Origin: an uncultured Gammaproteobacteria bacterium
GTDB taxonomy: Bacteria > Patescibacteriota > Microgenomatia > Daviesbacterales > UBA10151
NCBI GenBank assembly: GCA_964405655.1
Contig: CAYOOO010000005.1
Span: forward strand, 6,335-70,334
DNA length: 64,000 bases
Direction: 5' to 3'
Below, one piece after another: positions 9,037 through 22,172 of the stretch. Under the pieces are notes generated by a model, which saw only the letters and a program-made list of their open reading frames with translations, searched no databases and was not told the DNA's origin. The first letter of the stretch is position 1; every line of letters begins with the position of its first letter. The translations under genes and the position numbers were made by a program.

Positions 9037-9585
9037 TTAGAATACTAGTTTATATAGTTTAGAACTCAGGCGGGTTTTAGCATACTTTTTAATCAGTTCA
9101 AAACCACCAATAAAGGTAGCAGTGTAAAAGATATCCCCAAGTAAGGTATTTTTGTAAAAGGGGATGGCGCTTATATAGCTTTGGAGTAAACCAGTTAAAT
9201 CTTTTGAATAAGTTGAGACTGGGTTTGACCAAACAGCTAAATTAGTCAGAAGATAAAAAAGTGTTGAGGAAAACAGGGTTGCTCCAAAAATAAGCAAGGG
9301 GTTTTTGTGAGGCTTCAACCACAAACCAATCAGACCAATTAGCAAAAAACTTCCATAAACACTAATCATGTCTAAGCCATAAAAGCCAATAGAGAGATCA
9401 CTGATAAAAAGAGCACTTATAGGCAAAACAAAAGCAAATTTTTTAGGCAGATAAACACCGGAAAATAAAGCTATAGCTGTAATTGGAGCAAAATTAGGTG
9501 GGTGAGGCAGGAGTCTTAAGACTACCCCAATCAATATCATCAAAACTGGTGCTAACTTTAAATCTTTAATCACTTTAAATCCCAT
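9037..9585 (-). CDS. Polytopic membrane protein, possibly an ECF-transporter S-component-like protein.
   Basis: 182 aa with ~5-6 hydrophobic helices and an HPPNFAPI motif. It overlaps the DUF4430-like gene upstream. Confidence 0.35.
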   Translation of the reverse strand: MGFKVIKDLKLAPVLMILIGVVLRLLPHPPNFAPITAIALFSGVYLPKKFAFVLPISALFISDLSIGFYGLDMISVYGSFLLIGLIGLWLKPHKNPLLIFGATLFSSTLFYLLTNLAVWSNPVSTYSKDLTGLLQSYISAIPFYKNTLLGDIFYTATFIGGFELIKKYAKTRLSSKLYKLVF

Positions 9586-9953
9586 TCTATTTTCTCATTA
9601 TCCTGGCATGTGTAGGCAGAGGCACCAATTGTGGCTTCTTGACCATCAATTGAATAAAGCCAGTATTTACCATCACCTTGGCTAACTCCATTTATTGCAG
9701 TCACCATCTTACCTAAAGCGCTGTCAGTATACTCAACACTTTTAGTACTTTTCTGCAAAGCTTCAAATGCAGTTTTGCCTTTTTGGCACTGATAGGAGAT
9801 TTTACTAGTTTGAGAAGCTGCTGACAAAGAGGCAGTAGGTTCTTCTTGAGAGAAGGGTTTAAGAGGTCTTGAGGAACTAATTAAATAGGTGGTAGCTGCA
9901 ATCAAAACCAAAACAACTATAAATCCCACCAGCAAGTTTAAGTTCTTATTCAT
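9570..9953 (-). CDS. DUF4430-like (transcobalamin-like fold) exported protein.
   Basis: Signal anchor, then ...NGVSQGDGKYWLYSIDGQEATIGASAYTCQDNEKIEW, which resembles the DUF4430 signature (W-Y-x-NG/DG ... D-I-EW). Confidence 0.4.
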   Translation of the reverse strand: MNKNLNLLVGFIVVLVLIAATTYLISSSRPLKPFSQEEPTASLSAASQTSKISYQCQKGKTAFEALQKSTKSVEYTDSALGKMVTAINGVSQGDGKYWLYSIDGQEATIGASAYTCQDNEKIEWDLK

Positions 9954-10045
9954 AAGTAGAAAAGAAGTGTCTGGTTAAAATACCAGTCTTAGACTAACTT
10001 TGTCAATTCACAAGATATTGGGGGGTAGACAGACCAGAACTCATG

Positions 10046-10118
10046 TCCAAGGCCCTGGAGTCGAACCAGGCTAAACAGGTTTTACAGACCTGCGCATCAA
10101 CCGCTCTGCCAGCCTTGG
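10046..10118 (-). tRNA. tRNA-Tyr (anticodon GUA). It is type I (short 5-nt variable loop) with a C1:G72 acceptor pair and A73; no encoded CCA.
   Basis: Reverse complement: CCAAGGC-TG-GCAGAGCGGTTGATGC-G-CAGGT-CTGTAAA-ACCTG-TTTAG-CCTGG-TTCGACT-CCAGG-GCCTTGG-A. This folds as a cloverleaf with GTA at positions 34-36. Confidence 0.8.
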
Positions 10119-10196
10119 GTTTAAAACCTAAATTAAACTCATAAATTATACCAAGATCTTGAGGGTGATGCCAGAGAATAAGGAGTAAAGCCTTAG

Positions 10197-12458
10197 TTAC
10201 TTATTAAATCCACCAACGAAGAAGTCCCAGATCATCTGAAGAAGACCTCTGCTTGTTTTAGCTCCTTGAACAGATGGAGCGGGCTGAGGTGCAGTCGTAC
10301 TCTCGGGTTGGGGCGCAGGAGCACTTGTTTGTGCAGGCTGAGGAGTGGACTGAGTACTAGTTGTAGTGGTTGATGAACCTCCACACTGACAGGAGCAGAA
10401 ATCACCATTCCAGTTACAAGTTCCTCCACAAGATCTGCATCCTGATTCCTGTGATTCTCTATTCATACCTGAAGGAGCTGTAGTTTGAGTGGTGGTAGTA
10501 CCTGTAGTGGTTGTTCCTGAAGTAGGTGAATTATAACCTCGGCAGTAACAGCTTCCACTACTCCAGTCACAAGTCCCACCACCAGATCTACAAGTAGCTT
10601 CTTGAGAGTCTCTAGTCATGGTGTTACCTGAGTAACTACCACTGCCACTATAAGAACTCGTTGTTCCGGAAGTAGATCCATAATTTGCATACTGACAATA
10701 TGATCCATTCCAAGTCCCACCACTATTCCTACATGCTTGTGCTGGATCATAATAGTTATTGGTGGTAGTAGCTGGTGCGCTGTAACCTTTACAATAACAG
10801 GAACCATTACTCCAATCGCAAGTTCCTCCACCCGCCTTGCAACCAGCCTCTTGTTGGTCCCTACTACTCATACCAGCATTATTGTTTCCTGAAATACCTT
10901 TCATACAATTACAGGTAGTGCCGTTGTTATCCCAACTACAATAACCACCTGATTGATTACAGGCTCTATTTTGATCTGCTGCAGGCGCATTGGTCTTAAC
11001 TTCTATCTGTGTGTAGTTGGGATTTCGATAATTTTGGCAACTACAAATTCCGCTGCTCCAATCGCAAGTACCACCGCCTGATTTACAGGTAGCCTCCTGG
11101 GAGTCTCTACTCATGGTACTACCACCATAGTAAACACCAGCACTGGTACACTGACAGGAGTTATTAGCCCAACTACAACCTGATTGGCTACACATCTTTG
11201 CAGGATCATAGTTATATGAAGCACATAGACAGCCGCCCCCAGCACCGCCAACCCAGGCACAACCTCCTCTGGCACAGGCAGCTGCAGGATCTGAGTAGTA
11301 TTTATCTGCCTGGTAATCTTTACAGGACGAACCATCCCAGTATTTACTGGCTTGTGTCGTACACTGATAAGCATCAGCGCTCTTATTTAAGGGTGTACAG
11401 ACTCCTCCCGGACCGATGTAGTAATCAGCTGGACAACGGACATAATAGTTGTAACTCTCAGTTTTTGGCCGGCATTGCTCAGGGTTGTCCCGACAGAACT
11501 CCATGTATTTTTGCTCAGCAGAACCTTTTTGGGGACTCATACATTTATCAGCGTTCTCTCGGCAGTGTCTGGCAAACTCTTCAGGGCTGGTGTAGTCACC
11601 AATTGGTCGAAAGTCTACTGCTCCACCAACAATACTTCTACAAGATTGGGGATTATTTTTACAATAATTTAAACAGCTCTCAGGTGAGTTACAACCTCCG
11701 GGTCCTCTAAATTCTCCAGGGCCACCACCAAAGTTTGAGCATTCCTGATAATTTTTGGGGTCCAGACAAAAAGTTTTACAGGTAGTTTCTGACGTGCAGC
11801 CTCCTGGGCCAACTCTCATCTCACCACCCCTTAACCCAACCTTTTGGGCAACTTCTGAACACTTTTGGCGATTCTCTTCTTTGTCGCAAAGACTCTTACA
11901 GGAGGTCGCATCATTGCAACCTAAAACCGCTTTTACCTTGTCTAAAACCCTCTCTGGTTCCTCAACATACCCGCCTGGTACTCCGATTTCTTTTGCCAGC
12001 TGATTACATTTATCATAGTTTTCCTCCTTATCACAAACATTTGCACAAGATTGAGGTGTGTTACACCCAAGAATCCTCTTGGCCGCAATTAAGAATTTCT
12101 GTTCAACTTCTGCTTTTAGACCTTCCCCCTGATAAAAACCTTTGGTCTTAGCATAGGCCACACAAGCATTTTCATTAACTGGATCTTCGCAAAAAGTTCT
12201 ACAGGATGAATAATTTGCACAATTACCCAGCTCGGCAATAGGAAAAACAATCCCGTATTTGCTGGTCTTTTTTACAACCTCTTCCTCAAGATCATCAACT
12301 CCATCATTATTTTCATCTAATACTGGATGCGAAGGGGAAATAAGAATTGGTACTTTATCAACTGTAACTAATATAAAAACAAAAACTACTAAAGGAAGAA
12401 GTAGCGATCTTAGTAATCTGCTTTTTAAAATGCTCAAAATTGAATTATTAAAAGTCAT
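10197..12458 (-). CDS. Giant secreted Cys-rich repeat protein (753 aa), copy 1 of a paralogous pair. It has a signal anchor, ~5 four-Cys repeats (LGCxxxxSCxxxCDxxxNxxKCxxxAK), four ~50-aa SRDSQEATC-SGGGTCDWSSGSC-C-GY repeats, a Thr/Ser/Pro/Gln-rich tail and a conserved hydrophobic C-terminus.
   Basis: Read from the translation. Strong collinearity with ORF 15445..17766 over the N-terminal 350 aa. Confidence 0.6.
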   Translation of the reverse strand: MTFNNSILSILKSRLLRSLLLPLVVFVFILVTVDKVPILISPSHPVLDENNDGVDDLEEEVVKKTSKYGIVFPIAELGNCANYSSCRTFCEDPVNENACVAYAKTKGFYQGEGLKAEVEQKFLIAAKRILGCNTPQSCANVCDKEENYDKCNQLAKEIGVPGGYVEEPERVLDKVKAVLGCNDATSCKSLCDKEENRQKCSEVAQKVGLRGGEMRVGPGGCTSETTCKTFCLDPKNYQECSNFGGGPGEFRGPGGCNSPESCLNYCKNNPQSCRSIVGGAVDFRPIGDYTSPEEFARHCRENADKCMSPQKGSAEQKYMEFCRDNPEQCRPKTESYNYYVRCPADYYIGPGGVCTPLNKSADAYQCTTQASKYWDGSSCKDYQADKYYSDPAAACARGGCAWVGGAGGGCLCASYNYDPAKMCSQSGCSWANNSCQCTSAGVYYGGSTMSRDSQEATCKSGGGTCDWSSGICSCQNYRNPNYTQIEVKTNAPAADQNRACNQSGGYCSWDNNGTTCNCMKGISGNNNAGMSSRDQQEAGCKAGGGTCDWSNGSCYCKGYSAPATTTNNYYDPAQACRNSGGTWNGSYCQYANYGSTSGTTSSYSGSGSYSGNTMTRDSQEATCRSGGGTCDWSSGSCYCRGYNSPTSGTTTTGTTTTQTTAPSGMNRESQESGCRSCGGTCNWNGDFCSCQCGGSSTTTTSTQSTPQPAQTSAPAPQPESTTAPQPAPSVQGAKTSRGLLQMIWDFFVGGFNK

Positions 12459-12463
12459 ATTTT

Positions 12464-12718
12464 TTACTTCACTGAGTCGAAGGGATTCTTATAAACTGCA
12501 AACGGGTTAACGTATTGAGACGATTTATCAAATGGATTACTATACTCAGATTTCAAGCCAATCTTTGCCTCTTTAGATTTTTCAGATTGAAAGGAAAAGG
12601 GCAATTTTTCAAGCGGGTTTTTGATTATTCCCTGAGAAACAAGAATTGCTAGTATAGCTACTAAAATAACTACTAGGAGTAAAGGAATTAAGGCGACTAT
12701 TCCTTTTTGATTGGGCAT
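12464..12718 (-). CDS. Small membrane-anchored protein (84 aa) with a PilX_N-like N-terminus (MPNQKGIVALIPLLLVVILV) and three NPF motifs; paralog of 17763..18008.
   Basis: Shared architecture: MxNQKGI + TM ... EYxNPF..QYVNPF..YKxPF. It sits 5 nt upstream of the giant gene. Confidence 0.5.
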   Translation of the reverse strand: MPNQKGIVALIPLLLVVILVAILAILVSQGIIKNPLEKLPFSFQSEKSKEAKIGLKSEYSNPFDKSSQYVNPFAVYKNPFDSVK

Positions 12719-12748
12719 TAATTAATTATTCACTGAAATTTTTTCTGA

Positions 12749-12776
12749 GAATGTGATTTAAATCACATTTTGTCAA
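12749..12776. promoter_or_regulatory. CRP/FNR-type palindrome AATGTGAtttaaaTCACATTT, abutting TTGACA on the sense (-) strand, upstream of the small gene and giant gene.
   Basis: Matches the 22-bp consensus AAATGTGAtctagaTCACATTT at 14 of 16 half-site positions. A second copy is at 18029-18056. Confidence 0.5.
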
Positions 12777-12794
12777 GAGATTGCGCTCAAGCAT

Positions 12795-13868
12795 TTAGTT
12801 CCTCTGGTAATCTTGGGCGATTCTATGAATATAACTCATGCAATCTATTTGTTCGTCCTGATTTTCTAAGCTCCGACAGATAACTTCTGATTTCTGCCTC
12901 CAATTCGGTAAATCTTGGAATACCATCTCGCCAGCTGCAAAGCGGAGACATCTTTTTTGGAAATTAACCAGCAGGGGTTGCATTTTACATAAGCTAATAA
13001 TTTTATCCGTATCTGCTTGAGAACTTAATACGCTATAAGATCCCAAAGAGTCAAAACATGCTTCTTTAAAAACCTCAGAAGTTGAGGTATTGCAAATTTC
13101 AGCTACCTGACCAACGACAAAACCAAATCTTCTAATCATCACCATTGGTTGATTTCTACCACAAGCGGTATCATAGATTTCAGGTAATTTATTACAAGGT
13201 GATAGTGGATCTTCCTGATTATAGAAGTTAGTGGAAGCAGATCTCTCAAATTCCATAAAGACTCCATCGTAACAAAACTGTTGGTTGTTAATTAACTTAT
13301 TACACTCTTTTAACGAAGCTTCTAAATCCTTAACTTTATGGAAACTTGCCAAACCGTGCCCAATTCCATGTACGCAGCTAGCAACTGGACCAGAGTTTTG
13401 CGGACCAAGTTTGTTACAAGCTTGCTCAGCCTCTGATAATTTCTCCGTTCCAAGGTAAAAGGCTTTATCTAAAAATCCGTGGAAGCAGCCGTAGGCAAAA
13501 GTAGGTGAACAAATAGACAAGCCTGAAAAGCCTGATTTGTCAAAAATGAGCCCTCCCATAAAGTGCGCTAAATCATGAGCAACATTACCACTCCCAGGAT
13601 TATTTTGATAAGTGTCAACGATAAAACTCCAAGTAGATTTTAAACCCTTTTGACCTGTTAACTTCTCAAGGTAACTATACTTTTCCTGTATATCTAGTTC
13701 CAAAAAGCCTTCTCTTGTTAAAGGAGTGAAATTTGAGTCTTGGGAAATTTCTGCATTTAGCGGTACTTGGTGATAAAACGGGTTTGTTAAAGCAAGTATA
13801 ATAAACCCTAATACCATAATCAAACCAATCAAAAAGTAGCGATCTTTTAAAACAGACAACTTAACCAT
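12795..13868 (-). CDS. Membrane-anchored Cys/His-rich repeat protein (357 aa) with ~7 repeats of C-x9-11-C-x-HG-x-GHG (e.g. CVHGIGHGL); paralog of 13869..15404 and 18070..19254.
   Basis: N-terminal TM; periodic Cys pairs; the HG-x-GHG motif degrades toward the C-terminus. Confidence 0.55.
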   Translation of the reverse strand: MVKLSVLKDRYFLIGLIMVLGFIILALTNPFYHQVPLNAEISQDSNFTPLTREGFLELDIQEKYSYLEKLTGQKGLKSTWSFIVDTYQNNPGSGNVAHDLAHFMGGLIFDKSGFSGLSICSPTFAYGCFHGFLDKAFYLGTEKLSEAEQACNKLGPQNSGPVASCVHGIGHGLASFHKVKDLEASLKECNKLINNQQFCYDGVFMEFERSASTNFYNQEDPLSPCNKLPEIYDTACGRNQPMVMIRRFGFVVGQVAEICNTSTSEVFKEACFDSLGSYSVLSSQADTDKIISLCKMQPLLVNFQKRCLRFAAGEMVFQDLPNWRQKSEVICRSLENQDEQIDCMSYIHRIAQDYQRN

Positions 13869-15404
13869 TTAATTTTTATATAACGAAGACTGGCAAGTTT
13901 GACTAAAGCCTGAATCCGCACTTTGACAAAGTTGTTCAATTTTTGTATTGTTGTTGCCGAATATATCTTTTAGTCTTTGACTCAATACCTGGAAACAGTG
14001 GGTTTTATCACGAGAGGAAGCCAACTTATTACAGAAAGTTTGTGGTTGATTAGTCATTGTTTCCCCCCAGAAGTCAACAATCACATTCAAACCACCGGTT
14101 ATACACTCTTGGAAATACCAAGGAGGCGAAACTTGGCAAAACTGAATAATCTTATCTGGATCTCTTAGGGTTTGACCAGCAATGTCCCTACCTAAACTTC
14201 TAAAACAAACACCCATCATATTCGCAGGGGTTCTCTGACATTCAGCAGCAATGGCTTGGAAGTTATAATTAAAAATACTTAGCATTCGGCTTGTTTGCAT
14301 TTGATAACACTCAAACTGGACTAACTCTGATTGATCAACACTGTTGCAAGGAAATTGAGGATCACTACTAACCCATTCAGTCTTATGACCTTTGACTGCT
14401 CCTCTCCCCTCGGCAACCATAATATTTTCCATGAACACTCCTCCAAAACACGATCTTTTAGCATAATCATTGGAAAGTTGATAACAGAGATTAATTGCTT
14501 TTGGTATATCATAGTTGATATAAGCAGTGAGACCATGACCAATGCCATGAAGGCACTCAAATTTAGAAAAATCTGTCTTGAATTTATTGCACAGGTTTTC
14601 AACTCTTTTCATTAAGGTTTTCTCCCTTTGAAGTCCCTTGGATAAGGCCTTTTGTTGGGCAATAAATGCTTCCATAGCACCATGGATAAAGCCGGAGTGA
14701 CAACTATAGTTTATTTTCTTAAAAACTGCTGATTTATAAGTTTTATAGGCAGTTCTTCCAATCAAATGCGCTTCTTGATGACAATCGACCTTGGATCCTC
14801 CGTCAGTATCTAAAACTAACTTATCCATTAATTGATTGCCTCCTAAAACAATTAACCAGTACTTTAGCTGTCTTTCGTCTTGAGCTAGTCGGTAAGCATC
14901 AGTGGTTTGCAGCTTCGCATAGAGTTTTTTAGGAAAAATTACATAATAAATTCTTGCTAAGTAAGCTTTAATATCATTTATCAATGAAGTTAAGTTAAAT
15001 TTTTTGGTGTTGTCTTTAGATGGTGTAAATTGTGTTGATCCAGATTCTGAAACTGTAATTTTCCCAATAAGATGAGGATTGAGGTGATCATGGAATTTAA
15101 ATATACCTGCTTTTTCAAACTTGAACTTCCAAACTTCGCCAGGTTGGATTGGCCTTTTTGGATCAAACTCTTTATAAATCAAATGAATGGGGTGAAAATC
15201 TGAAGCCGGCCAGCGTGCATCAGTATCCTCGTTTTTAAAAATTACCTCCTGACCTTTTTTAATTGTTATTTCATCTGGTTTGAATTCACCATCCTTAAGC
15301 AATATTGTTGCTTCCTCAGAGGACAAAACAGCTTTTGAGAAAAATATAGAATAACAAATTAATCCAAACAGGAAAACAAACCCAAACCTTCTCAGTCTAC
15401 CCAT
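13869..15404 (-). CDS. Membrane-anchored protein (511 aa) with an N-terminal cupredoxin-like beta-sandwich (no Cys ligand; HDHLNPH) followed by ~9 Cys/His repeats (CHSGFIHG, CLHGIGHGL).
   Basis: Translation read directly. The stop abuts the start of the next paralog. Confidence 0.55.
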   Translation of the reverse strand: MGRLRRFGFVFLFGLICYSIFFSKAVLSSEEATILLKDGEFKPDEITIKKGQEVIFKNEDTDARWPASDFHPIHLIYKEFDPKRPIQPGEVWKFKFEKAGIFKFHDHLNPHLIGKITVSESGSTQFTPSKDNTKKFNLTSLINDIKAYLARIYYVIFPKKLYAKLQTTDAYRLAQDERQLKYWLIVLGGNQLMDKLVLDTDGGSKVDCHQEAHLIGRTAYKTYKSAVFKKINYSCHSGFIHGAMEAFIAQQKALSKGLQREKTLMKRVENLCNKFKTDFSKFECLHGIGHGLTAYINYDIPKAINLCYQLSNDYAKRSCFGGVFMENIMVAEGRGAVKGHKTEWVSSDPQFPCNSVDQSELVQFECYQMQTSRMLSIFNYNFQAIAAECQRTPANMMGVCFRSLGRDIAGQTLRDPDKIIQFCQVSPPWYFQECITGGLNVIVDFWGETMTNQPQTFCNKLASSRDKTHCFQVLSQRLKDIFGNNNTKIEQLCQSADSGFSQTCQSSLYKN

Positions 15405-15444
15405 CTTTCCGTCTAATATACCATATTTTGAATTTCTTATGGGT

Positions 15445-17766
15445 CTAATTTTTTCCTAGCAAGAAGTTAATCACTCTCTGAAGCCAGCTGACTTGAGTGC
15501 TTGCTCCTGCTACACCGCCAGCGTCACTGCTAGGAGGTGGGGGCGGAGGGGGCTCTGGTGGAGGCGGGGGAGGGGTTTCATAGCTTGGAGTTCCATAAGA
15601 AGGGGTAGCATAACTCGGTGTACCGTAACTTGGGGTAGCATAACTTGGACTCGGATAAGAATAAGATGGTGATGGGTATGAGTAAGATCCAGGGGTGGGA
15701 TAACTATAGGTACCTGAGGGAGTGTAATAGCTAGGTGAAGGATAAGAATAGCTACCAGAAGGTGTTGGATAAGAATAACCAGGTGTTGGGTAGGAGTAGC
15801 CTGATGAAGGAGTTAAGTAGCTTTCTGGTGTGTAGTAAGTTGGGGTGGTATAACTACTACCTGGTGGAGGAGTGTAGTAGGATGGTGTTACATAATTTCC
15901 TCCAGAAGGAGTGTAGTAGGTCGGGGAGGTGTAGGTACTGCCAGGAGGAGGAGTGTAATAGCTAGGTGTATTATAAACCGCTGGTGTATAGTAGCTTGGG
16001 GTGGTGTAATTTGAACCAGGAGGTGGGGTATAGTAGGTCGGTGTGGTATATGAACCTGTTACATTGATTGGAGTATAGTAGGTTGGTGTGGTATAAGGCG
16101 GTGGCGTGGTGTAATTAGGTGTGGTATAACTCGATCCCGGAGGTGGAGTATAGTAATAGGGTGTAGTGTACCTTGGTGGGGTGTAGTAAGTCGGGGTGGT
16201 GTAATTTGAGCCAAGAGGAGGGGTATAGTAGGAAGGCGTGTTATATGAAGGTGTTGGGTAATTTCCTTGCGGAGTTGGATAGTAGGTTCCTGGTGTATAG
16301 TAAGTTGGGGTGGTATAACTACTACCTGGTGGAGGAGTGTAATAAGAAGGAGTCAAGTAGATACCTGGCGTATAGTAGCTTGGGGTGGTGTAATTTGATC
16401 CCGGAGGTGGAGTGTAGTAGACAGGCGTGACATAAAAACTTGTTGCGGGCGGGGTATAGTAAACAGAATCTTTAGGCGGAGTATAGTAAGTACCTGGGAC
16501 AAAATTATCTAGGGGTCTTGGAGATTTAGCATCAAATCCCTGACATTTGCCTGGATTGTCCTTACAAAAGTCATAACAAGCGCCTGGTGAGTCACAATTC
16601 CCCATCTCTTTAACTGGCTCCATTTTGACAGGAGTCCCGGGTGTGTAATATATAGAGGGTAAATATTTATCTGTTGGTCTCGGGCCACTTCCATCAAAGC
16701 CTCCACATTTACCTGGGTTTTCTTTACAATAGTCATAACAGGCTCCAGGGGTCTTACAATTTCCCATATCAGGTCTAGGTTGAAAGTATGCACCACCTGC
16801 TGTTGGGTTAATCCCTGGTGGCGGGCTGTCTTGACAGCTTGATCCACTCCAATATTTACCTCCTTGGGCACAGGATTGAGCTACTTGTGTCTTATCATTC
16901 GGTGTGCAAGCACCTCCAGGTCCAAAATTCTGTCCAGCCGGGCAAGCTACCGGAACATAGGCTCCATTGGAACCTGGTGCATAGCTCCTACAATCAGCTG
17001 GGTTTTGTTCACAATGCGATCGGCAGGATTCAGGGTTATTACATCCTCCTGGGCCTTGGAATTGTTGGCCTGGTGGAGCAAAAGCCTGACATTTACTAAA
17101 GTTATTTGGATCAGCGCAGAAGTTTTTACAAGTAGCATCTGAATTACATCCTCCTGGGCCCTCTTTAACCTCTCCCCCTAAAAGCCCAACTGACTTAGCA
17201 AACTGGTCACATTTTGCAGCATTGGCCTGGTTATCACAAAAGCTGCTACAGCTGGCAGCTGAATCACAACCTAAGATTTTCTTGGCTTGATCTAAAAACT
17301 GTGGTTTATCTGGTTCTTGGACATAACCTCCAATAATCTCTTCTTCTTTAGCAAAACCATCACATTTATCTTTATTTTCAGCTTTTGAGCAGAAGTCTAA
17401 ACACTCTTCCTTATCTTTACAACCTAAACCATCTTGAGTTTTCTTCCAAAATTCATCATCAGCAGCTAAAACTTTATCCTGTTTATAAAAACCCTTTTTC
17501 TTGGCATAGTCTGCACAGGAGGAAAAGTTGACTGGATCATCGCAATAAGCTAAACATTCTCCTTTGTTCTCGCAGTTGCCCAAATCTTTGATGGGAAAGA
17601 CTACAGCGTTATCTTGTCCACCTGGCGCAGGTGAGGCAGTTGGGCTTGGGGCAGGAGAAGGGGATGTTGTTTGAGCTTTTGCTTGAGTACTAAAAAAGAA
17701 GACTAGAATTGAAGCTGCCAGTAGTATTGCTAACTTATTTAGATTTCCTCTAATTAAATTGATCAT
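15445..17766 (-). CDS. Giant secreted Cys-rich repeat protein (773 aa), copy 2. Its N-terminal 4-Cys repeats are homologous to copy 1. The C-terminal ~300 aa are tandem Tyr/Thr/Pro-rich repeats (TPSYYTPPPGSNYTTPTYYTP), then poly-Pro and a conserved hydrophobic C-terminus.
   Basis: Signal peptide; PIKDLGNCENKGECLAYCDDPVNFSSCADYAKKKGFY aligns with the copy-1 PIAELGNC... block. The start overlaps the small gene stop (ATGA). Confidence 0.6.
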   Translation of the reverse strand: MINLIRGNLNKLAILLAASILVFFFSTQAKAQTTSPSPAPSPTASPAPGGQDNAVVFPIKDLGNCENKGECLAYCDDPVNFSSCADYAKKKGFYKQDKVLAADDEFWKKTQDGLGCKDKEECLDFCSKAENKDKCDGFAKEEEIIGGYVQEPDKPQFLDQAKKILGCDSAASCSSFCDNQANAAKCDQFAKSVGLLGGEVKEGPGGCNSDATCKNFCADPNNFSKCQAFAPPGQQFQGPGGCNNPESCRSHCEQNPADCRSYAPGSNGAYVPVACPAGQNFGPGGACTPNDKTQVAQSCAQGGKYWSGSSCQDSPPPGINPTAGGAYFQPRPDMGNCKTPGACYDYCKENPGKCGGFDGSGPRPTDKYLPSIYYTPGTPVKMEPVKEMGNCDSPGACYDFCKDNPGKCQGFDAKSPRPLDNFVPGTYYTPPKDSVYYTPPATSFYVTPVYYTPPPGSNYTTPSYYTPGIYLTPSYYTPPPGSSYTTPTYYTPGTYYPTPQGNYPTPSYNTPSYYTPPLGSNYTTPTYYTPPRYTTPYYYTPPPGSSYTTPNYTTPPPYTTPTYYTPINVTGSYTTPTYYTPPPGSNYTTPSYYTPAVYNTPSYYTPPPGSTYTSPTYYTPSGGNYVTPSYYTPPPGSSYTTPTYYTPESYLTPSSGYSYPTPGYSYPTPSGSYSYPSPSYYTPSGTYSYPTPGSYSYPSPSYSYPSPSYATPSYGTPSYATPSYGTPSYETPPPPPPEPPPPPPPSSDAGGVAGASTQVSWLQRVINFLLGKN
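15546..16500 (-). repeat. In-frame tandem DNA repeats of ~30-60 bp encoding the YYTPPPGS(N/S)YTTP(S/T)YYTP units inside the 773-aa gene.
   Basis: Visible periodicity of ggtggagg/agtgtagtag/ccaggtgg units on the + strand. Confidence 0.6.
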
Positions 17767-18008
17767 TTTTGTTCAAAAGTAAGAAACGGACTCTTATATT
17801 CATCAAAAGGATTAACATATTGGTTTTCCTTTTTGAAAGGATTTTTATACTCTGTTTTAACCGCTACTTTTGGCTCTTGCTTGACTAGGTTAGAGAAACC
17901 GGGGATTTTAAATGAACCTTTAGAGTAAAAGAGGAATAAACCGACGCCAAGGATAACAACAATTAACACAAGCAGTAAAAGGTGGGCGATTCCTTTTTGA
18001 TTAATCAT
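17763..18008 (-). CDS. Small PilX_N-like NPF protein (81 aa), copy 2.
   Basis: MINQKGIAHLLLLVLIVVILGVGLFLF ... EYKNPFKKENQYVNPFDEYKSPF; paralog of 12464..12718. Confidence 0.5.
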   Translation of the reverse strand: MINQKGIAHLLLLVLIVVILGVGLFLFYSKGSFKIPGFSNLVKQEPKVAVKTEYKNPFKKENQYVNPFDEYKSPFLTFEQK

Positions 18009-18028
18009 TTTTTTAGTACTTAACTAAA

Positions 18029-18056
18029 TAATGTGACGCAGATCACAATTTGTCAA
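18029..18056. promoter_or_regulatory. Second CRP/FNR-type palindrome AAATGTGAcgcagaTCACAATT with adjacent TTGACA, upstream of cassette copy 2.
   Basis: Same arrangement as 12749-12776 (TTGACAAAtTGTGA-N6-TCACA on the sense strand). Confidence 0.5.
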
Positions 18057-18069
18057 GTATTAAAATTTC

Positions 18070-19254
18070 CTATATTTGGGAGAGGCAGCCTGTTCTGAAG
18101 GGCTCTTCTAAAGAGGAACATAACTCAAGCTTTCTGACATTGCTTGAAGGCTCTGAAGTAATTTGCCCGATAATATTTTGGTAACAGCTTTGTTTGCCCT
18201 CAGCAGAGATCTTTTTGCAGATCTCTATGGCAGTCGTAGAGTCTCCCACTGAATAATAAGAACCTGCATTAACTGAAATACAACTATTTAGCCAATCACT
18301 ACCCATTTGCTGACAAAGGCTAAAGACCTTTGATATATCACCCTCAGTTAACGGATGAATTTGTCTTGCCAGGTTATCCATACACCAGTCAGTATATTGC
18401 TTATTACCAGTATTTAAACAAGCCTCCGCTGTCTTAGGGATACCTCCCAAATACATCTGATAAATCCTTGCAGCTTGATTTAACCAACAGCCCTTTTGGT
18501 ATTTTTCCCCAAAATAATTACATGGAAAATAAGGATCATCAGATAACCAATCTCTTTTTGGAGTTTTATCTTTTCCCCAATCATGAACTCCGAAGAGATT
18601 CTCCATAAACGCACCATTATGACAAGAAGAGAGTGCCTCTGGAAACTGGCTTTCTTTTTCAAAGACTTCGTCACAGGTATTTAAGGCCTTGGGAAGATCA
18701 TAATTCCAAATTGCCAAAATTGCATGGCCAGCAGCATGGGCACATTGAAAATATCTTAAGGGAGACTCTTTGCATTTATCTGCCATCCCAGCAACTACCT
18801 CAAATCCTTGATCGCTAGCAGCCTCAATAATTGCTCCGTGATAACAGGCATATAAAAAGTAGTCTTTGCACTTTAGAATTGAATCCAGTTTATATTTTTG
18901 ATAGGCATAAAAACCAATTTGATGGACAGCTAGGTGTCCTTCACCAGTATGAGGAAGGCTAGAGTGTTCTAAAATTTCTAGGGCTTGTTCCACATCTACT
19001 CTTTCGACTAATTTCCTTGTTGCTTTAAGCCGAATTTCTTGATTGTCTGACAAGATTTCTGTCAGTTCAGGAACATTTTCTGGCGTATATAATATCTTAC
19101 CTGCGGCTTGAGAGGTTGGTGTTAAGTTAATAACTGACTTAAATTTCATCAGTTCCTTTTTATCTAATTTAGGATAAGGTAATAGAGCAATAAGTAAAAG
19201 AACTAAAACTATTAGGCTTAAAAAGAAAATTAACTTGGTATTCCTAAAATACAT
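18070..19254 (-). CDS. Membrane-anchored Cys/His repeat protein (394 aa) with CAHAAGHAIL and CYHGAIIE motifs; paralog of 12795..13868 and 13869..15404.
   Basis: N-terminal TM; periodic C-x9-11-C repeats. Confidence 0.55.
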   Translation of the reverse strand: MYFRNTKLIFFLSLIVLVLLLIALLPYPKLDKKELMKFKSVINLTPTSQAAGKILYTPENVPELTEILSDNQEIRLKATRKLVERVDVEQALEILEHSSLPHTGEGHLAVHQIGFYAYQKYKLDSILKCKDYFLYACYHGAIIEAASDQGFEVVAGMADKCKESPLRYFQCAHAAGHAILAIWNYDLPKALNTCDEVFEKESQFPEALSSCHNGAFMENLFGVHDWGKDKTPKRDWLSDDPYFPCNYFGEKYQKGCWLNQAARIYQMYLGGIPKTAEACLNTGNKQYTDWCMDNLARQIHPLTEGDISKVFSLCQQMGSDWLNSCISVNAGSYYSVGDSTTAIEICKKISAEGKQSCYQNIIGQITSEPSSNVRKLELCSSLEEPFRTGCLSQI

Positions 19255-19268: not shown

Positions 19269-19679
19269 TCATCTTATTCGGTGTCTTCTTTTGACTCGCA
19301 GCCTGGCTAGAGATTTTTCCAAAATAGCCAAAGTTTCAGCATACTCCTCACCTGAAAGTTTTTGTTCTAAAGCTGCCTCAGCCCGTTTTTTGGCTTCCTC
19401 AGCAGCTCTTTCATCTATCTCCTCAGCTTTTTCTGCCAGATCAGCCATCACTGTTAAGATATTATTACTCACTTGCAAAAAGCCTTCACCCACTGCCAAA
19501 ACATCAACTTTTCCCCCCTTTTTAATTCGTAGCTCACCAGGCACTACTTTAGCCAATAAATTAGCGTGATGAGGCAGGATACCAATCTCTCCTTGTTCAG
19601 TTGAGATATTAACTTGATCAACTGTCTCATCAAAAATTTCTTTCTCAGGTGTCACTAACTTCAGATGCAAATCCGCCAT
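19269..19679 (-). CDS. atpC: F1 ATP synthase epsilon subunit, separated from the rest of the atp operon.
   Basis: MADLHLKLVTPEKEIF...GEIGILPHHANLLAKVVPGELRI... plus a C-terminal helical hairpin. The ORF can extend to 19703. Confidence 0.8.
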   Translation of the reverse strand: MADLHLKLVTPEKEIFDETVDQVNISTEQGEIGILPHHANLLAKVVPGELRIKKGGKVDVLAVGEGFLQVSNNILTVMADLAEKAEEIDERAAEEAKKRAEAALEQKLSGEEYAETLAILEKSLARLRVKRRHRIR

Positions 19680-19703
19680 AGCGGTATTATCGCAAATTTG
19701 CAT

Positions 19704-19709
19704 ATAATT
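19704..19709 (+). promoter_or_regulatory. TATAAT -10 box ~19 nt upstream of the 19729 ATG, in the divergent region with atpC.
   Basis: An exact TATAAT is present. Confidence 0.3.
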
Positions 19710-19728
19710 AGTAAGAGTTTAAAATCTT

Positions 19729-21234
19729 ATGAGTGGGGATCGATCGAATGAGTTACCAAGAGTCAGCCGAAGAGAATTGGTAAGTCCAACTAGAAGGACT
19801 AATACTCTAGCAACTCGACCAAATATTCTAACTCCATCTCCAGACAGAGTAAGACAAAGACAGGCAAGAAGAGAAAAGATTAAACAAGAACAAAGACGGG
19901 CTCTGCTGGGAATTGCAGGGGCAGCAACTCTAGCTGCAACATTTGCAGGAGCAAAACCTGCAATGGAGGCAGCCCAAAATATCGGAAGGGCAATAACTGG
20001 GGCAAAACCCATGGATCAGCAACCTGTTCAAGCTATCTTACATCCAGTTGATCCCACTGGTGAAAGGACAGCTCCAGCAACTGGAGTTCAAGCTGCAGAA
20101 AGACCCAGACTGCAATCACTTTTAGACAATATCCTAACTACCCCCTTAAATACCCCCCAAAGATTTGATGCAGAAAAAGCTTATGCAGATTCTGCCCAAA
20201 GCTTAAGTGAGATTAACCAAGGATTATGGACAATAACTGATTGGAACTTAAGAATTGGGCTCTTAGACAAAAGATATGCCTTAAGAGATGAGAATAACCC
20301 AAATCATCAACCTCTAACAAAAGAGCAAGCTGATTGGGCAGATAAAGAGTATATCCATCCTGAAACTTTAGCAATTACTATTCAAGCCAGAGAACTGGCT
20401 CAAAAAATTTTAGCTGAATATATTTCTAAAAGAGTTGGCGGATGGTCCAGTTTTAGGCCAGATTTGGCAGCTAAAGTTAAATCTGGTGAGCTTCCACCAG
20501 ATTTTTTTAATAAACTAAGCCCCGGAGATGTCCTAATTAATCCCGGCGGAATGGCTAGGATGGTGGTTTGGGAAACAGGCCAGGGACTACCTAAAGACAA
20601 ACCTCAGGGGGCAGTCTCCTCAATCTTGAGCAGAATCAAGAATAAAATTTCTCCGGAGAGATTTCTGATGTACGGCTTTGTGAACATTGGTTTTACCCCG
20701 GCAAGGTCTCAAATTGATGCAAATACTTTCCTGACTAAAAGATATGACAACAAGGATGCTCTATCATATTTGGCTGGTGAGCTTTCAAAAGAGACAGGTT
20801 TGAATTTCACAGAAAATAATTTACCAGGTTCCTCAAAGGTAGAAATTAAACCGGGCGATAATGACAATGCAATTGCTGAAAAACAACTTAGAAGTACTGT
20901 CTCAGGGGGAGCAGTTGGGCTACAGATGATGCCTGAGGTTATAGCAAATTATCAGTCTAACCCAATAATCCATGAAGCATTTAAAAGAAACGGCCTAACT
21001 ATTAATCCTTACGACCCAGTCTCAGCTACAACTCTAGGCTATCTATTCTTAGCCCAATCTGTTGCTACATCAGGAGGGAATTTCCAGTATGGCTTCCTAA
21101 ATAATACTCATCCTGATCTGAAAGGAAAAGAGACAATGGTTAAAGCTTTTAAGAAAGACTCACTTTTAACCTGGAATAGATTTGATAATCAAGTCAGAGA
21201 AGTCCTGGATTCAGAAGAAAGTTTTAGAATATGA
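19729..21234 (+). CDS. Membrane-anchored protein with a C-terminal lytic-transglycosylase (SLT)-like motif.
   Basis: TM helix (ALLGIAGAATLAATFAGA); EKQLRSTVSGGAVGLQMMPE resembles the SLT E-S...GA-GLMQ-MP signature. Confidence 0.45.
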   Translation: MSGDRSNELPRVSRRELVSPTRRTNTLATRPNILTPSPDRVRQRQARREKIKQEQRRALLGIAGAATLAATFAGAKPAMEAAQNIGRAITGAKPMDQQPVQAILHPVDPTGERTAPATGVQAAERPRLQSLLDNILTTPLNTPQRFDAEKAYADSAQSLSEINQGLWTITDWNLRIGLLDKRYALRDENNPNHQPLTKEQADWADKEYIHPETLAITIQARELAQKILAEYISKRVGGWSSFRPDLAAKVKSGELPPDFFNKLSPGDVLINPGGMARMVVWETGQGLPKDKPQGAVSSILSRIKNKISPERFLMYGFVNIGFTPARSQIDANTFLTKRYDNKDALSYLAGELSKETGLNFTENNLPGSSKVEIKPGDNDNAIAEKQLRSTVSGGAVGLQMMPEVIANYQSNPIIHEAFKRNGLTINPYDPVSATTLGYLFLAQSVATSGGNFQYGFLNNTHPDLKGKETMVKAFKKDSLLTWNRFDNQVREVLDSEESFRI

Positions 21235-21596
21235 ATACCCATAGTTGTGAAACACTAATTGCAACCTGTATAGACTTCAGGTTTCAGGAATATATTAATG
21301 ATTGGATAAAGGAAAATTTTAGTCCCAAAACTTATGATAGGGTGGCCTTTGCCGGGGGAGTAAAAGAATTTGAAACTATCTTTGGACAAATTGAAACTTC
21401 AAAAAGGCTCCATGATATTAAAAAAGTAGTTTTAATAAATCATGAGGATTGCGGGGCATATGGAGAGTCTGGTACTAAAAAGAAGCATATCCAAGATCTA
21501 AAACAGGCATCTTCCCGAATTAAAAAGCAGTACTCAGATTTAGAAGTAGCAACTTATTATCTTAAACTAAGCGGCACTTTTGAAAAAATTCAATGA
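21231..21596 (+). CDS. Small beta-carbonic-anhydrase-like protein (121 aa) carrying the CxDxR and HxxCG zinc-site motifs.
   Basis: CIDFRF and INHEDCGAYG. It overlaps the upstream gene by 4 nt. Confidence 0.4.
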   Translation: MNTHSCETLIATCIDFRFQEYINDWIKENFSPKTYDRVAFAGGVKEFETIFGQIETSKRLHDIKKVVLINHEDCGAYGESGTKKKHIQDLKQASSRIKKQYSDLEVATYYLKLSGTFEKIQ

Positions 21597-21973
21597 AAAC
21601 TATTAAGCAAAGTTATTTAATAAATGCTCAAGTTAGTAAAGTCTGGCAGGCTTTGGTGAATCCAAAAATTATTGATGAGTGGGGTGGGGGACCGGCAAAA
21701 ATGAGCGAGAGAGAAGGCAGCAGTTTCTCTCTTTGGGGAGGAGATATTCATGGCAGTAATCTTAAAGTGATAAAAAACAAACAACTTGTCCAGGATTGGT
21801 ATTCAGGTGACTGGGAGAATTCTTCCAAAGTTACTTTTACGTTAAAATCAGATGGTCAAAAAACAGAAGTAGATTTACTCCATGAAGAAGTGCCAGATGA
21901 TGAAGCAGATGAAATAGAAGATGGCTGGCAAAGATTTTATTTAGGACCGCTCAAAGATTACTTAGAAAAATAA
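21593..21973 (+). CDS. SRPBCC/AHSA1-like (START-fold) protein.
   Basis: SKVWQALVNPKIIDEW ... acidic C-terminus; 4-nt overlap with the upstream gene. Confidence 0.45.
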   Translation: MKTIKQSYLINAQVSKVWQALVNPKIIDEWGGGPAKMSEREGSSFSLWGGDIHGSNLKVIKNKQLVQDWYSGDWENSSKVTFTLKSDGQKTEVDLLHEEVPDDEADEIEDGWQRFYLGPLKDYLEK

Positions 21974-22162
21974 CTTCTCTCTTCCTTGATTTTTAGAATA
22001 TTTTGACGCACAATGCTAACCATGTCTTTAGTGGATCATCAACAGCAAAGAAGAGTTTGGGAAGAGGTCATATAAGAAGACTAATGATTGTTTGCATCAC
22101 ATAGTAATTTTTCAAAAAAAGTAACTCTTTAGATCCCATAGTTTGATTTTAAATAAGGTTGT

Positions 22163-22172
22163 GACTATAATC
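22163..22172 (+). promoter_or_regulatory. TGACTATAAT extended -10-like promoter upstream of the methyltransferase gene.
   Basis: TG-ac-TATAAT ~15 nt before the ATG at 22186. Confidence 0.3.

Follow-up and report, generated by a model that had tools for sequence, protein, structure and literature searches.

Results

Seven genes between atpC and tRNA-Tyr

We analysed a window of 64,000 nucleotides from an uncultured Daviesbacteria genome (candidate phyla radiation), from which the ORFs and their paralogues were read. Seven ORFs, all on the minus strand, lie between atpC and a tRNA-Tyr gene, where the initial annotation had placed them, and A1 starts 14 nt downstream of atpC:

19269-19703, minus strand: atpC (ATP synthase epsilon; Pfam ATP-synt_DE_N, 1.2e-26)
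18070-19254, minus strand: A1, Cys/His (CH) protein of 394 aa; N-terminal TM helix, then a predicted disulfide-braced alpha-solenoid
17763-18008, minus strand: A2, membrane protein of 81 aa with a single TM span and the conserved tail YKNPF-x5-QYVNPF-x2-YKSPF
17763-17766, minus strand: ATGA overlap of the A2 stop and the A3 start (ORF coordinates)
15445-17766, minus strand: A3, secreted large protein of 773 aa; signal peptide, 32-Cys head, Tyr/Thr/Pro tail, C-terminal motif
16507-17604, minus strand: A3 head, residues 55-420; seven helical hairpins of 4 Cys each and a 4-Cys beta-containing insert
15532-16506, minus strand: A3 low-complexity tail, residues 421-745, with seven YYTPPxGSxYTxP units followed by SYSYPTP/SYGTP units and poly-Pro
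15448-15531, minus strand: A3 C-terminal motif (..GVAGASTQVSWLQRVINFLLGKN)
13869-15404, minus strand: B1a, exported protein of 511 aa; cupredoxin-like domain and CH domain
15051-15365, minus strand: B1a cupredoxin-like domain, residues 14-118; Pfam PF13473 (Cupredoxin_1)
13866-13871, minus strand: B1a stop TAA followed in frame by the B1b start ATG (...tat aaa aat TAA ATG gtt aag...)
12795-13868, minus strand: B1b, CH protein of 357 aa with its own N-terminal TM helix
12464-12718, minus strand: B2, membrane protein of 84 aa with a single TM span and the tail YSNPF..QYVNPF..YKNPF
10197-12458, minus strand: B3, 753-aa paralogue of the large protein; head at residues 70-381
10045-10118, minus strand: tRNA-Tyr (GTA), predicted by ARAGORN

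Each of the seven proteins starts with a hydrophobic segment, which in A1 is TM-like and spans residues 1-32. All seven are therefore predicted to be exported or anchored in the membrane, in agreement with the initial annotation, and the ATGA reported there at 17763/17766 is a genuine overlap of the A2 stop with the A3 start.

Gene order and rate of change

Gene order was surveyed in 44 species-representative loci with an A1 orthologue. The co-occurrence of the three protein classes in relatives was borne out by the order CH, small, large on one strand in 34 of these loci, and the same order is found in L001-L007; two further loci have CH and small at a contig end, six were uninformative and two were exceptions. 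In 36 of the 44 loci the A1 orthologue is followed directly by a small-protein orthologue. The tight coupling suggested from the window extends to 36 small-large pairs elsewhere, all with a gap of -11 to +26 nt and 14 of them with the -4 (ATGA) overlap. The cupredoxin-CH gene is also present in 24 of the 34 loci with the full order; of the remaining ten, nine come to an end within 1 kb, and L042 has no cupredoxin gene in the 5.4 kb downstream. The unit that recurs across Microgenomates is Cys/His, small, large and then cupredoxin-Cys/His(-Cys/His).

In the window and in the Daviesbacteria-type loci examined (L001, L006 and L055), atpC lies on one side of the cluster and PBP1A on the other, and the A1 orthologue directly follows atpC in L001 and L006 and not in L004 (Levybacteria) or L007. 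Identities between the same genomes were 61-65% for A1, 55-57% for the A3 head, 65% for atpC and 72% for PBP1A, so A1 is about as slow-evolving as atpC. This rate, near those of atpC and PBP1A, together with the conserved synteny argues for the behaviour of housekeeping envelope genes and not of fast-evolving, host-specific adhesins. Small-large pairs without an adjacent CH gene occur in L055 and L056. Since most members of the CH superfamily have no small or large partner beside them (L008, L009, L054), the basic activity of CH proteins cannot be specific to the large protein.

Paralogy and the duplication question

The locus had initially been described as two tandem copies of a three-gene cassette. 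The paralogy on which this rested is, by sequence comparison, far above chance in all three protein classes (E 3e-64 to 8e-13): A3 and B3 share 40% identity across 314 aa (E 3e-64) and A2 and B2 49% across 45 aa (E 8e-13), and identities are 28% for A1/B1a (E 9e-27), 24% for A1/B1b (E 4e-17) and 28% for B1a/B1b (E 1e-17). The cassette itself did not survive the comparison with relatives, in which the recurring unit has a cupredoxin-CH fourth gene. Judged from the alignments and gene order, a duplicated module of three genes is not what has been conserved; the supposed second copy begins with this fourth gene, and only B2-B3 is extra relative to the recurring unit. B1a and B1b are just 23-28% identical to A1 and so are not the head of a recent copy. 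The B2-B3 duplication is old, because B3 is collinear over its whole length with the second of the large proteins in L018, another Daviesbacterium (37% identity, E 7e-125); the extra small-large pair is shared with one other Daviesbacterium.

What distinguishes the window is this second, older small-large pair with its different spacer, and a fourth gene that is split in two. B1a and B1b are set apart by nothing but the in-frame TAA and the immediate ATG, and the two halves are fused in an 825-aa orthologue (P0207/L014). In L018, whose cupredoxin-CH-CH protein is 863 aa long, the first CH domain of that protein shares 46% identity with B1b.

Small and large proteins

Among small-protein orthologues the TM helix is variable and the NPF tail (YKNPF..QYVNPF..YKNPF) is the only conserved part. 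Three NPF motifs had been attributed to each small protein; B2 has three, but A2 has two NPF and one SPF. In addition, no PilX_N or pilin model matched the small proteins at E<=1 in profile searches, and the proposed PilX_N-like N-terminus was not supported.

A3 has 85 homologues, whose named source records are all Microgenomates lineages except for one generic Patescibacteria label. Its signal peptide has a predicted cleavage site at ..QAKA/QTT; if the N-terminal anchor of B3 is uncleaved, the topology proposed below would change. The repeats described for both large proteins were recovered: C-x5-C-x3-C-x6-8-C units number seven in A3 and five in B3, the A3 tail (~60% Tyr+Thr+Pro) consists of short degenerate repeats (YYTPPPGSNYTTP) including the seven YYTPPxGSxYTxP units, and the Cys/Gly/Ser/Thr-rich tail of B3 carries four R[DE][SQ]QE..C..GGTC[DN]W..C.C units (RDSQE..GGGTCDWS) as well as Thr-rich stretches. 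A3 orthologues keep 32-34 Cys and a tail of ~65% Y+T+P, and they do so across Daviesbacteria, Levybacteria, Gottesmanbacteria and Curtissbacteria. In the large-protein family as a whole the spacer may be rich in Y/T/P, in Cys/Gly/Ser or in Q/E/P/R, while the head and the C-terminal motif are kept. This motif, with the consensus (V/T)(Q/G)G(V/A)ST, 3-5 residues and a terminal amphipathic helix ..IWDFL.G(K/R/N), occupies the extreme C-terminus of most full-length homologues across all tail types, and B3 ends in the same motif as A3 (..SRGLLQMIWDFFVGGFNK).

CH and cupredoxin-like domains

A1 has 389 homologues, the best 120 of them at 61-74% identity, and 16 Cys and 8 His are invariant among 55 orthologues. 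No Pfam, NCBIfam or PDB relative of the CH domain was found, and the domain occurs in 5,992 clusters. The AF2 model of A1 (pLDDT 88.1) is all-alpha and matches in the PDB only generic solenoids (ARM/HEAT/TPR/PPR and designed repeat proteins), several of which were crystallised with extended peptides bound, in line with the solenoid-like repeats initially ascribed to the Cys/His proteins. Conservation and Cys covariation were counted in 224 non-redundant CH domains. H107, H111, H139, H173, H177, F216, M217 and E218, which form the set HxxxH / H / HxxGH / F-M-E in the first four repeats, are 98-100% conserved there at an overall identity of ~20-25%, and an in-register C-x-x-N ladder runs through repeats 4-7. 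Variable Cys columns are gained and lost in pairs: joint loss was seen for 106/133 in all 111 cases, for 129/137 in 90 of 91 and for 379/390 in 45 of 58, and the remaining six pairs are at least 98% conserved. The CH domain is probably an alpha-solenoid braced by one disulfide per repeat.

B1a has 407 homologues with a commonest length of ~490 aa; the source record of one names Paceibacterota. Its residues 14-118, for which no domain had been proposed initially, match Pfam Cupredoxin_1 at 7.1e-10 (39.3 bits against a cut-off of 27). Such a domain is present in 49 of the best 148 CH representatives, N- or C-terminal to CH, and no Pfam domain other than Cupredoxin_1 or Copper-bind recurs as a partner of CH. 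The domain in B1a has no Cys, and its motifs WPAS[DN]xHP[TS/I]H and FHDH are near-invariant in the 49 representatives, with four His in these two fixed motifs. The best PDB sequence matches were copper nitrite reductase (4.5e-4), Thermus laccase domain 1 (~1e-3) and plastocyanin (3.5e-3), those to laccase and nitrite reductase being marginal (E about 1e-3), and FHDH aligns with laccase YHPH. The domain lacks canonical Cys/Met ligands and might bind no metal.

Discussion

EfeO consists of a cupredoxin domain and an all-helical metal-binding M75 domain, and EfeM is an M75-only paralogue in the same system (PMC9174327). As in these extracytoplasmic proteins of EfeUOB(M) iron uptake, B1a joins a Cupredoxin_1-type domain to an all-alpha domain with metal-type ligands, and a helical-only paralogue is encoded alongside the fusion. 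Among His-ligated cupredoxin copper sites, domain 1 of multicopper oxidases (for example Thermus thermophilus laccase, 2xu9) also has a cupredoxin fold without type-1 Cys, and the second His of B1a HP[T/I]H aligns with the second His of HWHG. However, this match is marginal (E about 1e-3), the first B1a motif is HxxH instead of HxH, B1a has a single cupredoxin domain where multicopper oxidases have two, three or six, and the candidate partner to complete its site is a helical domain and not another cupredoxin. Helicobacter Hcp proteins are secreted Sel1-like alpha/alpha-repeat solenoids with one disulfide per repeat, and a close-spaced Cys pair in each repeat is shared by CH, whose pairing is supported by covariation. 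In contrast to the fixed short spacing of Hcp, CH Cys are 7-16 residues apart, and CH has the near-invariant His/Met/Glu cluster, a membrane anchor and the cupredoxin fusion; Sel1 and TPR models did not match the cluster proteins even at E<=1.

Plant extensins and mussel foot protein 1, which have structural or adhesive roles and are rich in Tyr, Pro, Thr and Ser, are cured by metal-dependent oxidases. The Tyr/Thr/Pro tail of A3 is likewise encoded next to candidate metalloproteins, but it has no sequence homology with extensins or the mussel protein, and no peroxidase or tyrosinase fold was detected among PDB structure matches. Tyr chemistry cannot be a universal role of the large proteins, since paralogues carry Cys/Gly/Ser-rich or Q/E/P/R-rich spacers instead. 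The large-protein C-terminus resembles sorting signals (LPXTG/sortase, PEP-CTERM, GlyGly-CTERM) in its short (V/T)(Q/G)G(V/A)ST motif, hydrophobic stretch and basic or polar end; however, the stretch is only ~10-12 residues long, amphipathic and contains Gln/Asp, and is thus too short for a membrane span. NCBIfam sorting-domain models did not match the cluster proteins, and the cluster has no conserved sortase or exosortase gene.

Cultivated members of the candidate phyla radiation are episymbionts, which counts towards a host-attachment system, as initially proposed, in which the large proteins would be adhesins binding a host cell or substrate by sticky low-complexity tails, with the other genes accessory. 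The predicted export of all products, the adhesive-like composition of the Tyr/Pro-rich and Cys-rich tails and the fact that the paralogues differ most in the tail agree with this, but we consider it unlikely: conservation is on a par with atpC and PBP1A, tail composition and Cys count are kept across four lineages, adhesins with host specificity tend to diversify rapidly, searches of the cluster proteins turned up no known adhesin domain, and the gene position is syntenic and not island-like. Recent window-specific tandem duplication, or a mobile island without conserved role, would account for two similar gene series side by side and for the slight GC rise over A3 and B3. It is refuted by the gene order kept in 34 loci and the B3 orthologue in L018 and retains next to no probability; the paralogues are just 23-49% identical, no DNA-level repeat was found except a 15-bp x3 array, and the GC rise is in keeping with the Pro/Gly/Thr/Cys codon content.

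Other alternatives concern the CH and cupredoxin-like proteins. These could bind, oxidise or store Cu or Fe in an EfeO/EfeM-like extracytoplasmic system for uptake or detoxification, with the small and large proteins as mere neighbours. The parallel in architecture with EfeO and its M75-only paralogue EfeM (PMC9174327), the Cupredoxin_1 domain of B1a, the near-invariant His, Met and Glu and the occurrence of CH proteins alone in many contexts all favour this reading, which is nevertheless rather improbable. It is doubtful, too, that CH is a metal-free ARM/TPR-type docking solenoid holding the NPF or proline-rich tail, with the cupredoxin as an Ig-like spacer. Its model does match only helical-repeat, peptide-binding folds, the C-x-x-N ladder is in register and only the NPF tail of the small protein is conserved, but five His and Phe-Met-Glu at 98-100% are unusual for scaffolds and typical of metal or active sites, and the four His of the cupredoxin partner are fixed in 49 representatives. 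Lastly, an energy-linked electron-transfer chain whose carrier would be the cupredoxin and whose genes would be transcribed together with ATP synthase is suggested by A1 lying 14 nt past atpC, an adjacency shared by L001 and L006, and by the one cupredoxin-containing protein. This is very improbable, as the adjacency is missing in Levybacteria (L004) and L007, the cupredoxin has no type-1 Cys ligand, and the cluster has no cytochromes, quinone-binding or polytopic membrane subunits, every anchor being single-pass.

We tentatively favour, as a plausible reading still short of probable, a conserved housekeeping-type envelope-fibre operon of Microgenomates with membrane-tethered maturation or docking factors, which from their conserved residues probably bind metal. 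Its core would be the translationally coupled pair, in which the small protein, with its single TM helix and invariant extracytoplasmic YKNPF..QYVNPF..YKNPF tail, may serve as membrane anchor or adaptor for the large one. The large protein (signal peptide, rigid 32-Cys helical head, spacer of free composition, C-terminal amphipathic motif) would be a structural fibre, wall-spanning or at the surface, whose spacer in A3 is an extensin-like or mussel-foot-protein-like Tyr/Thr/Pro tail. A1, B1a and B1b would be tethered to the outer face of the membrane. Met among the candidate ligands and a cupredoxin with His-only motifs as sole recurrent partner suggest that CH carries a metal centre, most likely copper, and it may also have a peptide-binding groove; together, centre and groove would allow docking of the large protein at the membrane surface and its chemical maturation there. 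The cluster is real and slowly evolving, its proteins are predicted to be exported, and it has the look of core machinery of the cell envelope, made up of protein families without annotation, and not of a recently duplicated adhesin cassette.

Gene content of the atpC to tRNA-Tyr interval

The interval between atpC and tRNA-Tyr holds seven consecutive ORFs, which encode proteins with a Cys/His (CH) domain, small proteins with an NPF tail, and large proteins:

10045-10118, flanking tRNA-Tyr
10197-19254, minus strand, seven consecutive ORFs, as follows
A1, minus strand, CH protein, 394 aa
A2, minus strand, small protein, 81 aa
A3, minus strand, large protein, 773 aa
B1a, minus strand, cupredoxin and CH protein, 511 aa
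B1b, minus strand, CH protein, 357 aa
B2, minus strand, small protein, 84 aa
B3, minus strand, large protein, 753 aa
13866-13871, in-frame TAA with an ATG directly after it, between B1a and B1b
19269-19703, flanking atpC, Pfam ATP-synt_DE_N, 1.2e-26

All seven proteins carry a hydrophobic N-terminal segment, and A1 lies 14 nt from atpC. The genes abut or overlap as initially described: A2 and A3 share a 4-nt ATGA overlap, B1b follows B1a at 0 nt, and 5 nt separate B2 from B3. A3 and B3 are 40% identical over 314 aa (E 3e-64), A2 matches B2 with E 8e-13, and the CH pairs A1/B1a, A1/B1b and B1a/B1b share 24-28% identity (E 9e-27 to 4e-17); on these alignments the three classes (CH, small, large) are paralogous, well beyond chance. 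The Cys and low-complexity protein repeats described in the initial annotation were all found in the window proteins. They are not recent DNA repeats, since a scan for DNA tandem repeats across the region gave a single array (15-bp x3.1).

Promoter and terminator counts showed no excess over shuffled sequence (23 vs 21.9 and 7 vs 9.1, respectively). A perfect TTGACA followed by a 17-nt spacer and CATTAT lies in the A1-A2 gap (18028-18056, minus strand), just 5' of the small-large pair, and is only a lead because promoter-like sites are no commoner regionwide than in shuffled sequence. GC content rises to 0.43-0.46 across both large genes (10001-12000 and 16001-18000) vs 0.36-0.40 nearby, which fits Pro/Gly/Thr/Cys-rich coding and not a foreign origin.

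A conserved unit of four genes

A1 corresponds to NCBI HYS93_02440 of a Candidatus Daviesbacteria genome. One genome per species was scanned, and the 44 loci with an A1 orthologue were annotated with four custom HMMs. The conserved gene order expected of such a module is present in related genomes: CH, small and large genes are co-stranded in 34 of the 44 loci, while two loci show CH and small genes and then the contig end, six are too short and two lack the partners. A cupredoxin-CH gene was found in 24 of these 34 loci, and nine of the other ten end less than 1 kb past the large gene. Orthologue neighbourhoods from Daviesbacteria, Levybacteria and relatives all show the order CH, small, large and cupredoxin-containing CH (about 460-870 aa). 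The conserved unit, as read from these loci, is of four genes, not three. This order across species identifies B1a/B1b as the conserved fourth gene and not as the head of a duplicated copy.

The three-gene cassette in tandem duplication that had first been proposed was accordingly abandoned, as only B2-B3 is extra and the copies are 23-49% identical. Such low identity also speaks against a recent tandem duplication, as does the B3 orthologue in another Daviesbacterium (L018), which likewise carries an extra pair of the B2-B3 type after the fourth gene. B3 and the second large protein of L018 are collinear over their whole length (37% identity, E 7e-125), and the RDSQE..GGGTCDWS units are part of this match, so the B2-B3 duplication is older than the split of the two lineages. 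A mobile element was considered and dropped because of the syntenic position: several Daviesbacteria-type genomes have the cluster in the stretch from atpC to PBP1A, a position not kept in Levybacteria. The window was compared with the loci L001 or L006, and its A1 and A3 head also with L004. Identities were 61-65% for A1, 55-57% for the N-terminal head of A3, 65% for atpC, 72% for PBP1A and about 30% for B1a. Rate and position together are, at the sequence level, the pattern of a core function, and they argue both against a fast-evolving host-specific adhesin and against a mechanistic tie to ATP synthase.

The B1a and B1b halves form one protein of 825 aa in a 61%-identical orthologue (P0207, locus L014). 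The former linker is now a full TM helix in B1b, reading KDRGLLGYLFSLIPP in the relative and KDRYFLIGLIMVLGFIILALT in the window.

Among the variants of the unit, three or four tandem CH genes occur in L020, L042, L043 and L046, and the cupredoxin gene is divergently placed in L038, L039 and L041. In every pair the small and large genes lie -11 to +26 nt apart, and 14/36 pairs overlap by ATGA. Small-large dyads without an adjacent CH gene were also observed (L055, 8654-10941; L056, 8675-10326); in these, head and C-terminal amphipathic motif are retained and the spacers are very different (Cys/Gly/Ser-rich, Q/E/P/R-rich). Given these variants, the small-large dyad is the tightest unit.

Several features of the surroundings were also recorded. 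The ATP synthase operon is split (19269-26155), with about 5 kb between atpC and atpD (24788-26155). On the opposite strand this interval encodes a 501-aa ORF without a Pfam match, Pro_CA_2, AHSA1, a methyltransferase, a Sigma70_r4 protein and a 343-aa unknown. Pro_CA_2 holds the equivalent place in L001, L007 and L055, so the interruption is old; AHSA1 adjoins it in L001 and L007. Immediately downstream of tRNA-Tyr, genes for DUF6580 (9037-9585) and DUF4430 (9570-9953) overlap by 16 nt and lie upstream of PBP1A (6401-8962). In one lineage, the Levybacteria locus L004, a rhomboid protease gene follows the cluster directly on the opposite strand (16770-17420). Additionally, many public records among L010-L053 are titled 'uncultured Gammaproteobacteria' or 'Saccharibacteria' and carry Daviesbacteria/Levybacteria-like genes (60-77% identity, same order), and these titles look unreliable.

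The CH domain

Across the group, A1 orthologues share 61-74% identity, and 16 Cys and 8 His are invariant. A full HMMER scan over 1.84 billion representatives, clustered at 50% identity, recovered the CH domain in 5,992 clusters at E<=1e-3 and in 4,177 at E<=1e-10. Proteins carry one copy of it, a tandem array of up to seven or eight copies, or a copy joined to a cupredoxin on either side. Cupredoxin_1/Copper-bind was the sole Pfam partner to recur among 38 long members, with GH3, FG-GAP and LRV/HEAT found once each. In the protein P0326 (3580 aa, on an 831-kb contig), about eight CH domains precede a GH3 glycoside hydrolase domain and LRV/HEAT repeats. The domain is also found outside the candidate phyla radiation, as several tandem copies on a Solirubrobacterales (Actinomycetota) contig (L054). 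There, at least four tandem CH ORFs (9950-14912), some apparently frameshifted, adjoin an opposite-strand protein of 1214 aa whose sequence resembles a trypsin-type protease with repeat regions.

In 224 non-redundant CH domains, residues H107, H111, H139, H173, H177, F216, M217 and E218 (A1 numbering) are 98-100% conserved and six Cys pairs are conserved at >=98%. The three variable Cys pairs are gained and lost together (106/133, 111/111; 129/137, 90/91; 379/390, 45/58), with Jaccard values of pairwise co-loss of 0.78-1.0, as predicted by one disulfide per repeat. Together with the N-terminal hydrophobic segments, this places CH in the descriptive class of putatively disulfide-braced extracytoplasmic repeats, and we infer from the same Cys covariation and N-terminal anchors that the domain lies outside the cytoplasm. 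A metallothionein-like role for these Cys-rich proteins was rejected, as the regular pairing of Cys within exported helical repeats suggests disulfides. After the second Cys of each repeat a residue ladder runs HxxxH, YHG, HxxGH, (H)xGxFMEN and then CWLN, CMDN, CISVN and CYQN. As in-register solenoid positions line one face, a groove is predicted there, with a metal centre at its N-terminal end and an Asn ladder along the rest, which may be like the ladders that bind extended peptides in ARM-type proteins.

Residue conservation and the fusion to cupredoxin make it rather probable that CH binds metal, and copper is a possible, somewhat doubtful, identity for that metal. No known family accounted for the domain: the A1 profile gave one meaningless match against PDB sequences (E 0.7), CH did not qualify under the Sel1/TPR repeat models (including Hcp), and the four-helix bundle with two sets of three His of type-3 copper proteins (tyrosinase, hemocyanin) was not found in it.

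The cupredoxin partner

In a Pfam and NCBIfam scan of all seven proteins (E<=1) the cupredoxin was the only family found, the remainder being sub-threshold noise (DUF3784, OppC_N, twin_helix). The initial annotation could name no domain for the repeat families, which stands; it overlooked Pfam PF13473 Cupredoxin_1 at the start of B1a (residues 14-118; 39.3 bits vs a cut-off of 27, E 7.1e-10). The same domain is precomputed in most B1a homologues, and across 49 representatives the motifs WPAS[ND]xHP[TS]H and [FYW]HDH are near-invariant. On these features the CH-linked cupredoxin is a distinct subfamily.

Its best PDB sequence matches were marginal, with E 4.5e-4 for a copper nitrite reductase, about 1e-3 for Thermus laccase domain 1 and 3.5e-3 for plastocyanin. 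When the domain is aligned with the laccase, FHDH lies over YHPH, and the second His of the first cupredoxin motif over the second His of HWHG. The His-x-His motifs of multicopper oxidases supply copper ligands. A multicopper oxidase has at least two cupredoxin domains, four HxH motifs and a type-1 site; B1a has one domain, one HxxH, one HxH and no type-1 site. Nor was the His/Cys/His/Met ligand set of blue copper (type-1) proteins such as plastocyanin and azurin present, as the C-terminal loop lacks Cys and Met. Aligned with spinach plastocyanin, whose ligand loop we take to be Cys-x-x-His-x4-Met, the domain reads FHDHLNPHLIG at that position; the loop is Cys-free in all 49 representatives, some of which carry Cys in a mid-domain insertion.

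The closest architectural precedent of the cupredoxin-CH protein is EfeO, which combines a cupredoxin domain with an all-helical metal-binding M75 domain, EfeM being its M75-only paralogue (PMC9174327). Unlike in these proteins, the partner domain here is CH and not M75, and no C-terminal M75/imelysin domain with HxxE was found. In addition, the EfeU/FTR1 permease and the EfeB DyP peroxidase appear in none of the gene tables of nine comparison loci (L001-L009), and the genes flanking the cluster in the window belong to other Pfam families or to none.

The small and large proteins

The membrane helix of the small protein is variable and its tail is strongly conserved (LKTEYKNPFxKxTQYVNPFxxYKNPF). 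The NPF motifs reported initially are present, although A2 has two NPF and one SPF, not three NPF. The PilX_N-like N-terminus did not survive the searches: neither the models of the type IV pilin class III signal (N_methyl) nor PilX_N gave a Pfam or NCBIfam match at E<=1. A pilin or pseudopilin identity was therefore rejected for want of the class III signal, which has Gly at -1, a hydrophobic residue at +1 and Glu at +5; A2 reads QKG/IAHLL, with the Glu at +5 missing, and the Levybacteria orthologues have no KG at all. A RiPP precursor role was also discarded, as the C-terminus is conserved, the N-terminal TM helix is variable and modifying enzymes are missing.

The large-protein family comprises 85 matches, and all source-named ones are from Microgenomates bar one generic "Patescibacteria group bacterium". 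Its members keep a signal peptide, a head, a spacer and a C-terminal motif. The head contains 32-34 Cys arranged as C-x5-6-C-x3-C-x6-9-C helical hairpins, and no known relatives were found with a head model (pLDDT 75.8) or by sequence searches. The C-terminus has (V/T)(Q/G)G(V/A)ST and then a short amphipathic helix ending in G-K/R/N. A sortase/exosortase-type sorting signal was considered for it and rejected, as the hydrophobic stretch of about 10-12 residues falls short of a TM helix of roughly 20 residues; NCBIfam CTERM models did not match A3 or B3. The A3-type spacer is about 65% Tyr+Thr+Pro (YYTPPPGSNYTTP), and the spacer is Cys/Gly/Ser/Thr-rich in B3, in L055 and in the second large protein of L018 (L018b), and Q/E/P/R-rich in a Roizmanbacteria paralogue. 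Since the ends are kept and the middle changes composition, head and C-terminus are likely the functional ends and the middle a spacer or stalk. Furthermore, a run of three GT2 glycosyltransferase genes is found immediately upstream of the CH/small/large genes in L007 (6267-9972) and of the small-large pair in L055 (4542-8278), and their presence in two lineages hints that the large protein may be glycosylated.

A possible envelope-fibre system

Taken as a whole, these proteins most likely form an envelope-fibre system, our preferred reading, although a tentative one with chances not far short of even. The large protein would be exported and its disulfide-rich head would fold, while the co-translated small protein would keep it at the membrane via the NPF tail, the C-terminal motif or both. 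Membrane-tethered CH solenoids would then dock the large protein in their groove, where the CH metal centre, jointly with the cupredoxin domain, would act on it. We consider it unlikely that this chemistry is an oxidative curing of the fibre at its Tyr or Cys residues. We give similarly little weight to the further reading that CH and the His-only cupredoxin are an extracytoplasmic copper enzyme of a class not recognised before, with a disulfide-braced alpha-solenoid as its framework, that cures the Microgenomates fibre. Under this copper-enzyme reading, curing would mean Tyr cross-linking or DOPA formation in an extensin-like or mussel-foot-protein-like fibre, perhaps also disulfide formation in the 32-Cys head, and would leave the cell wall with a covalently hardened layer of protein. 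Against a link between CH and the fibre, CH proteins mostly lack small and large partners and the dyad can occur without CH; as each occurs without the other, the link is lineage-specific and not obligatory.

Significance

The papers found describe neither the three proteins (CH, NPF and large) nor the way they are linked, and passing mentions of a Roizmanbacteria "secreted cysteine-rich protein" and of CPR "cupredoxin" are not attributable to these families. No entry for any of the three was found in the family libraries and solved structures searched, and Cupredoxin_1 is the only named family to which a part of the cluster could be assigned. The fold classes are recognisable (alpha-solenoid, cupredoxin, low-complexity stalk); what appears to be new is the protein families and their operon linkage, and a new mechanism is proposed. 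CH is, by its sequences, a large superfamily in which the His5-Met-Glu signature is near-invariant and a cupredoxin serves as dedicated partner; it lacks a Pfam, NCBIfam or PDB entry, and is probably a new metal-binding domain; if it binds copper, it would add a new metal-binding fold. Curing by a copper enzyme, if true, would give a lineage without a cultured member a wall chemistry of a type new among bacteria. To our knowledge, no member of the Microgenomates has been cultured, and images are all that is known of their envelope. The four-gene cluster occurs in many Microgenomates orders and matches the ATP synthase and PBP1A genes in its slow evolution. Being slow-evolving, widespread and unnamed in databases, it is a concrete candidate for a core structure in the envelope of these ultrasmall cells.
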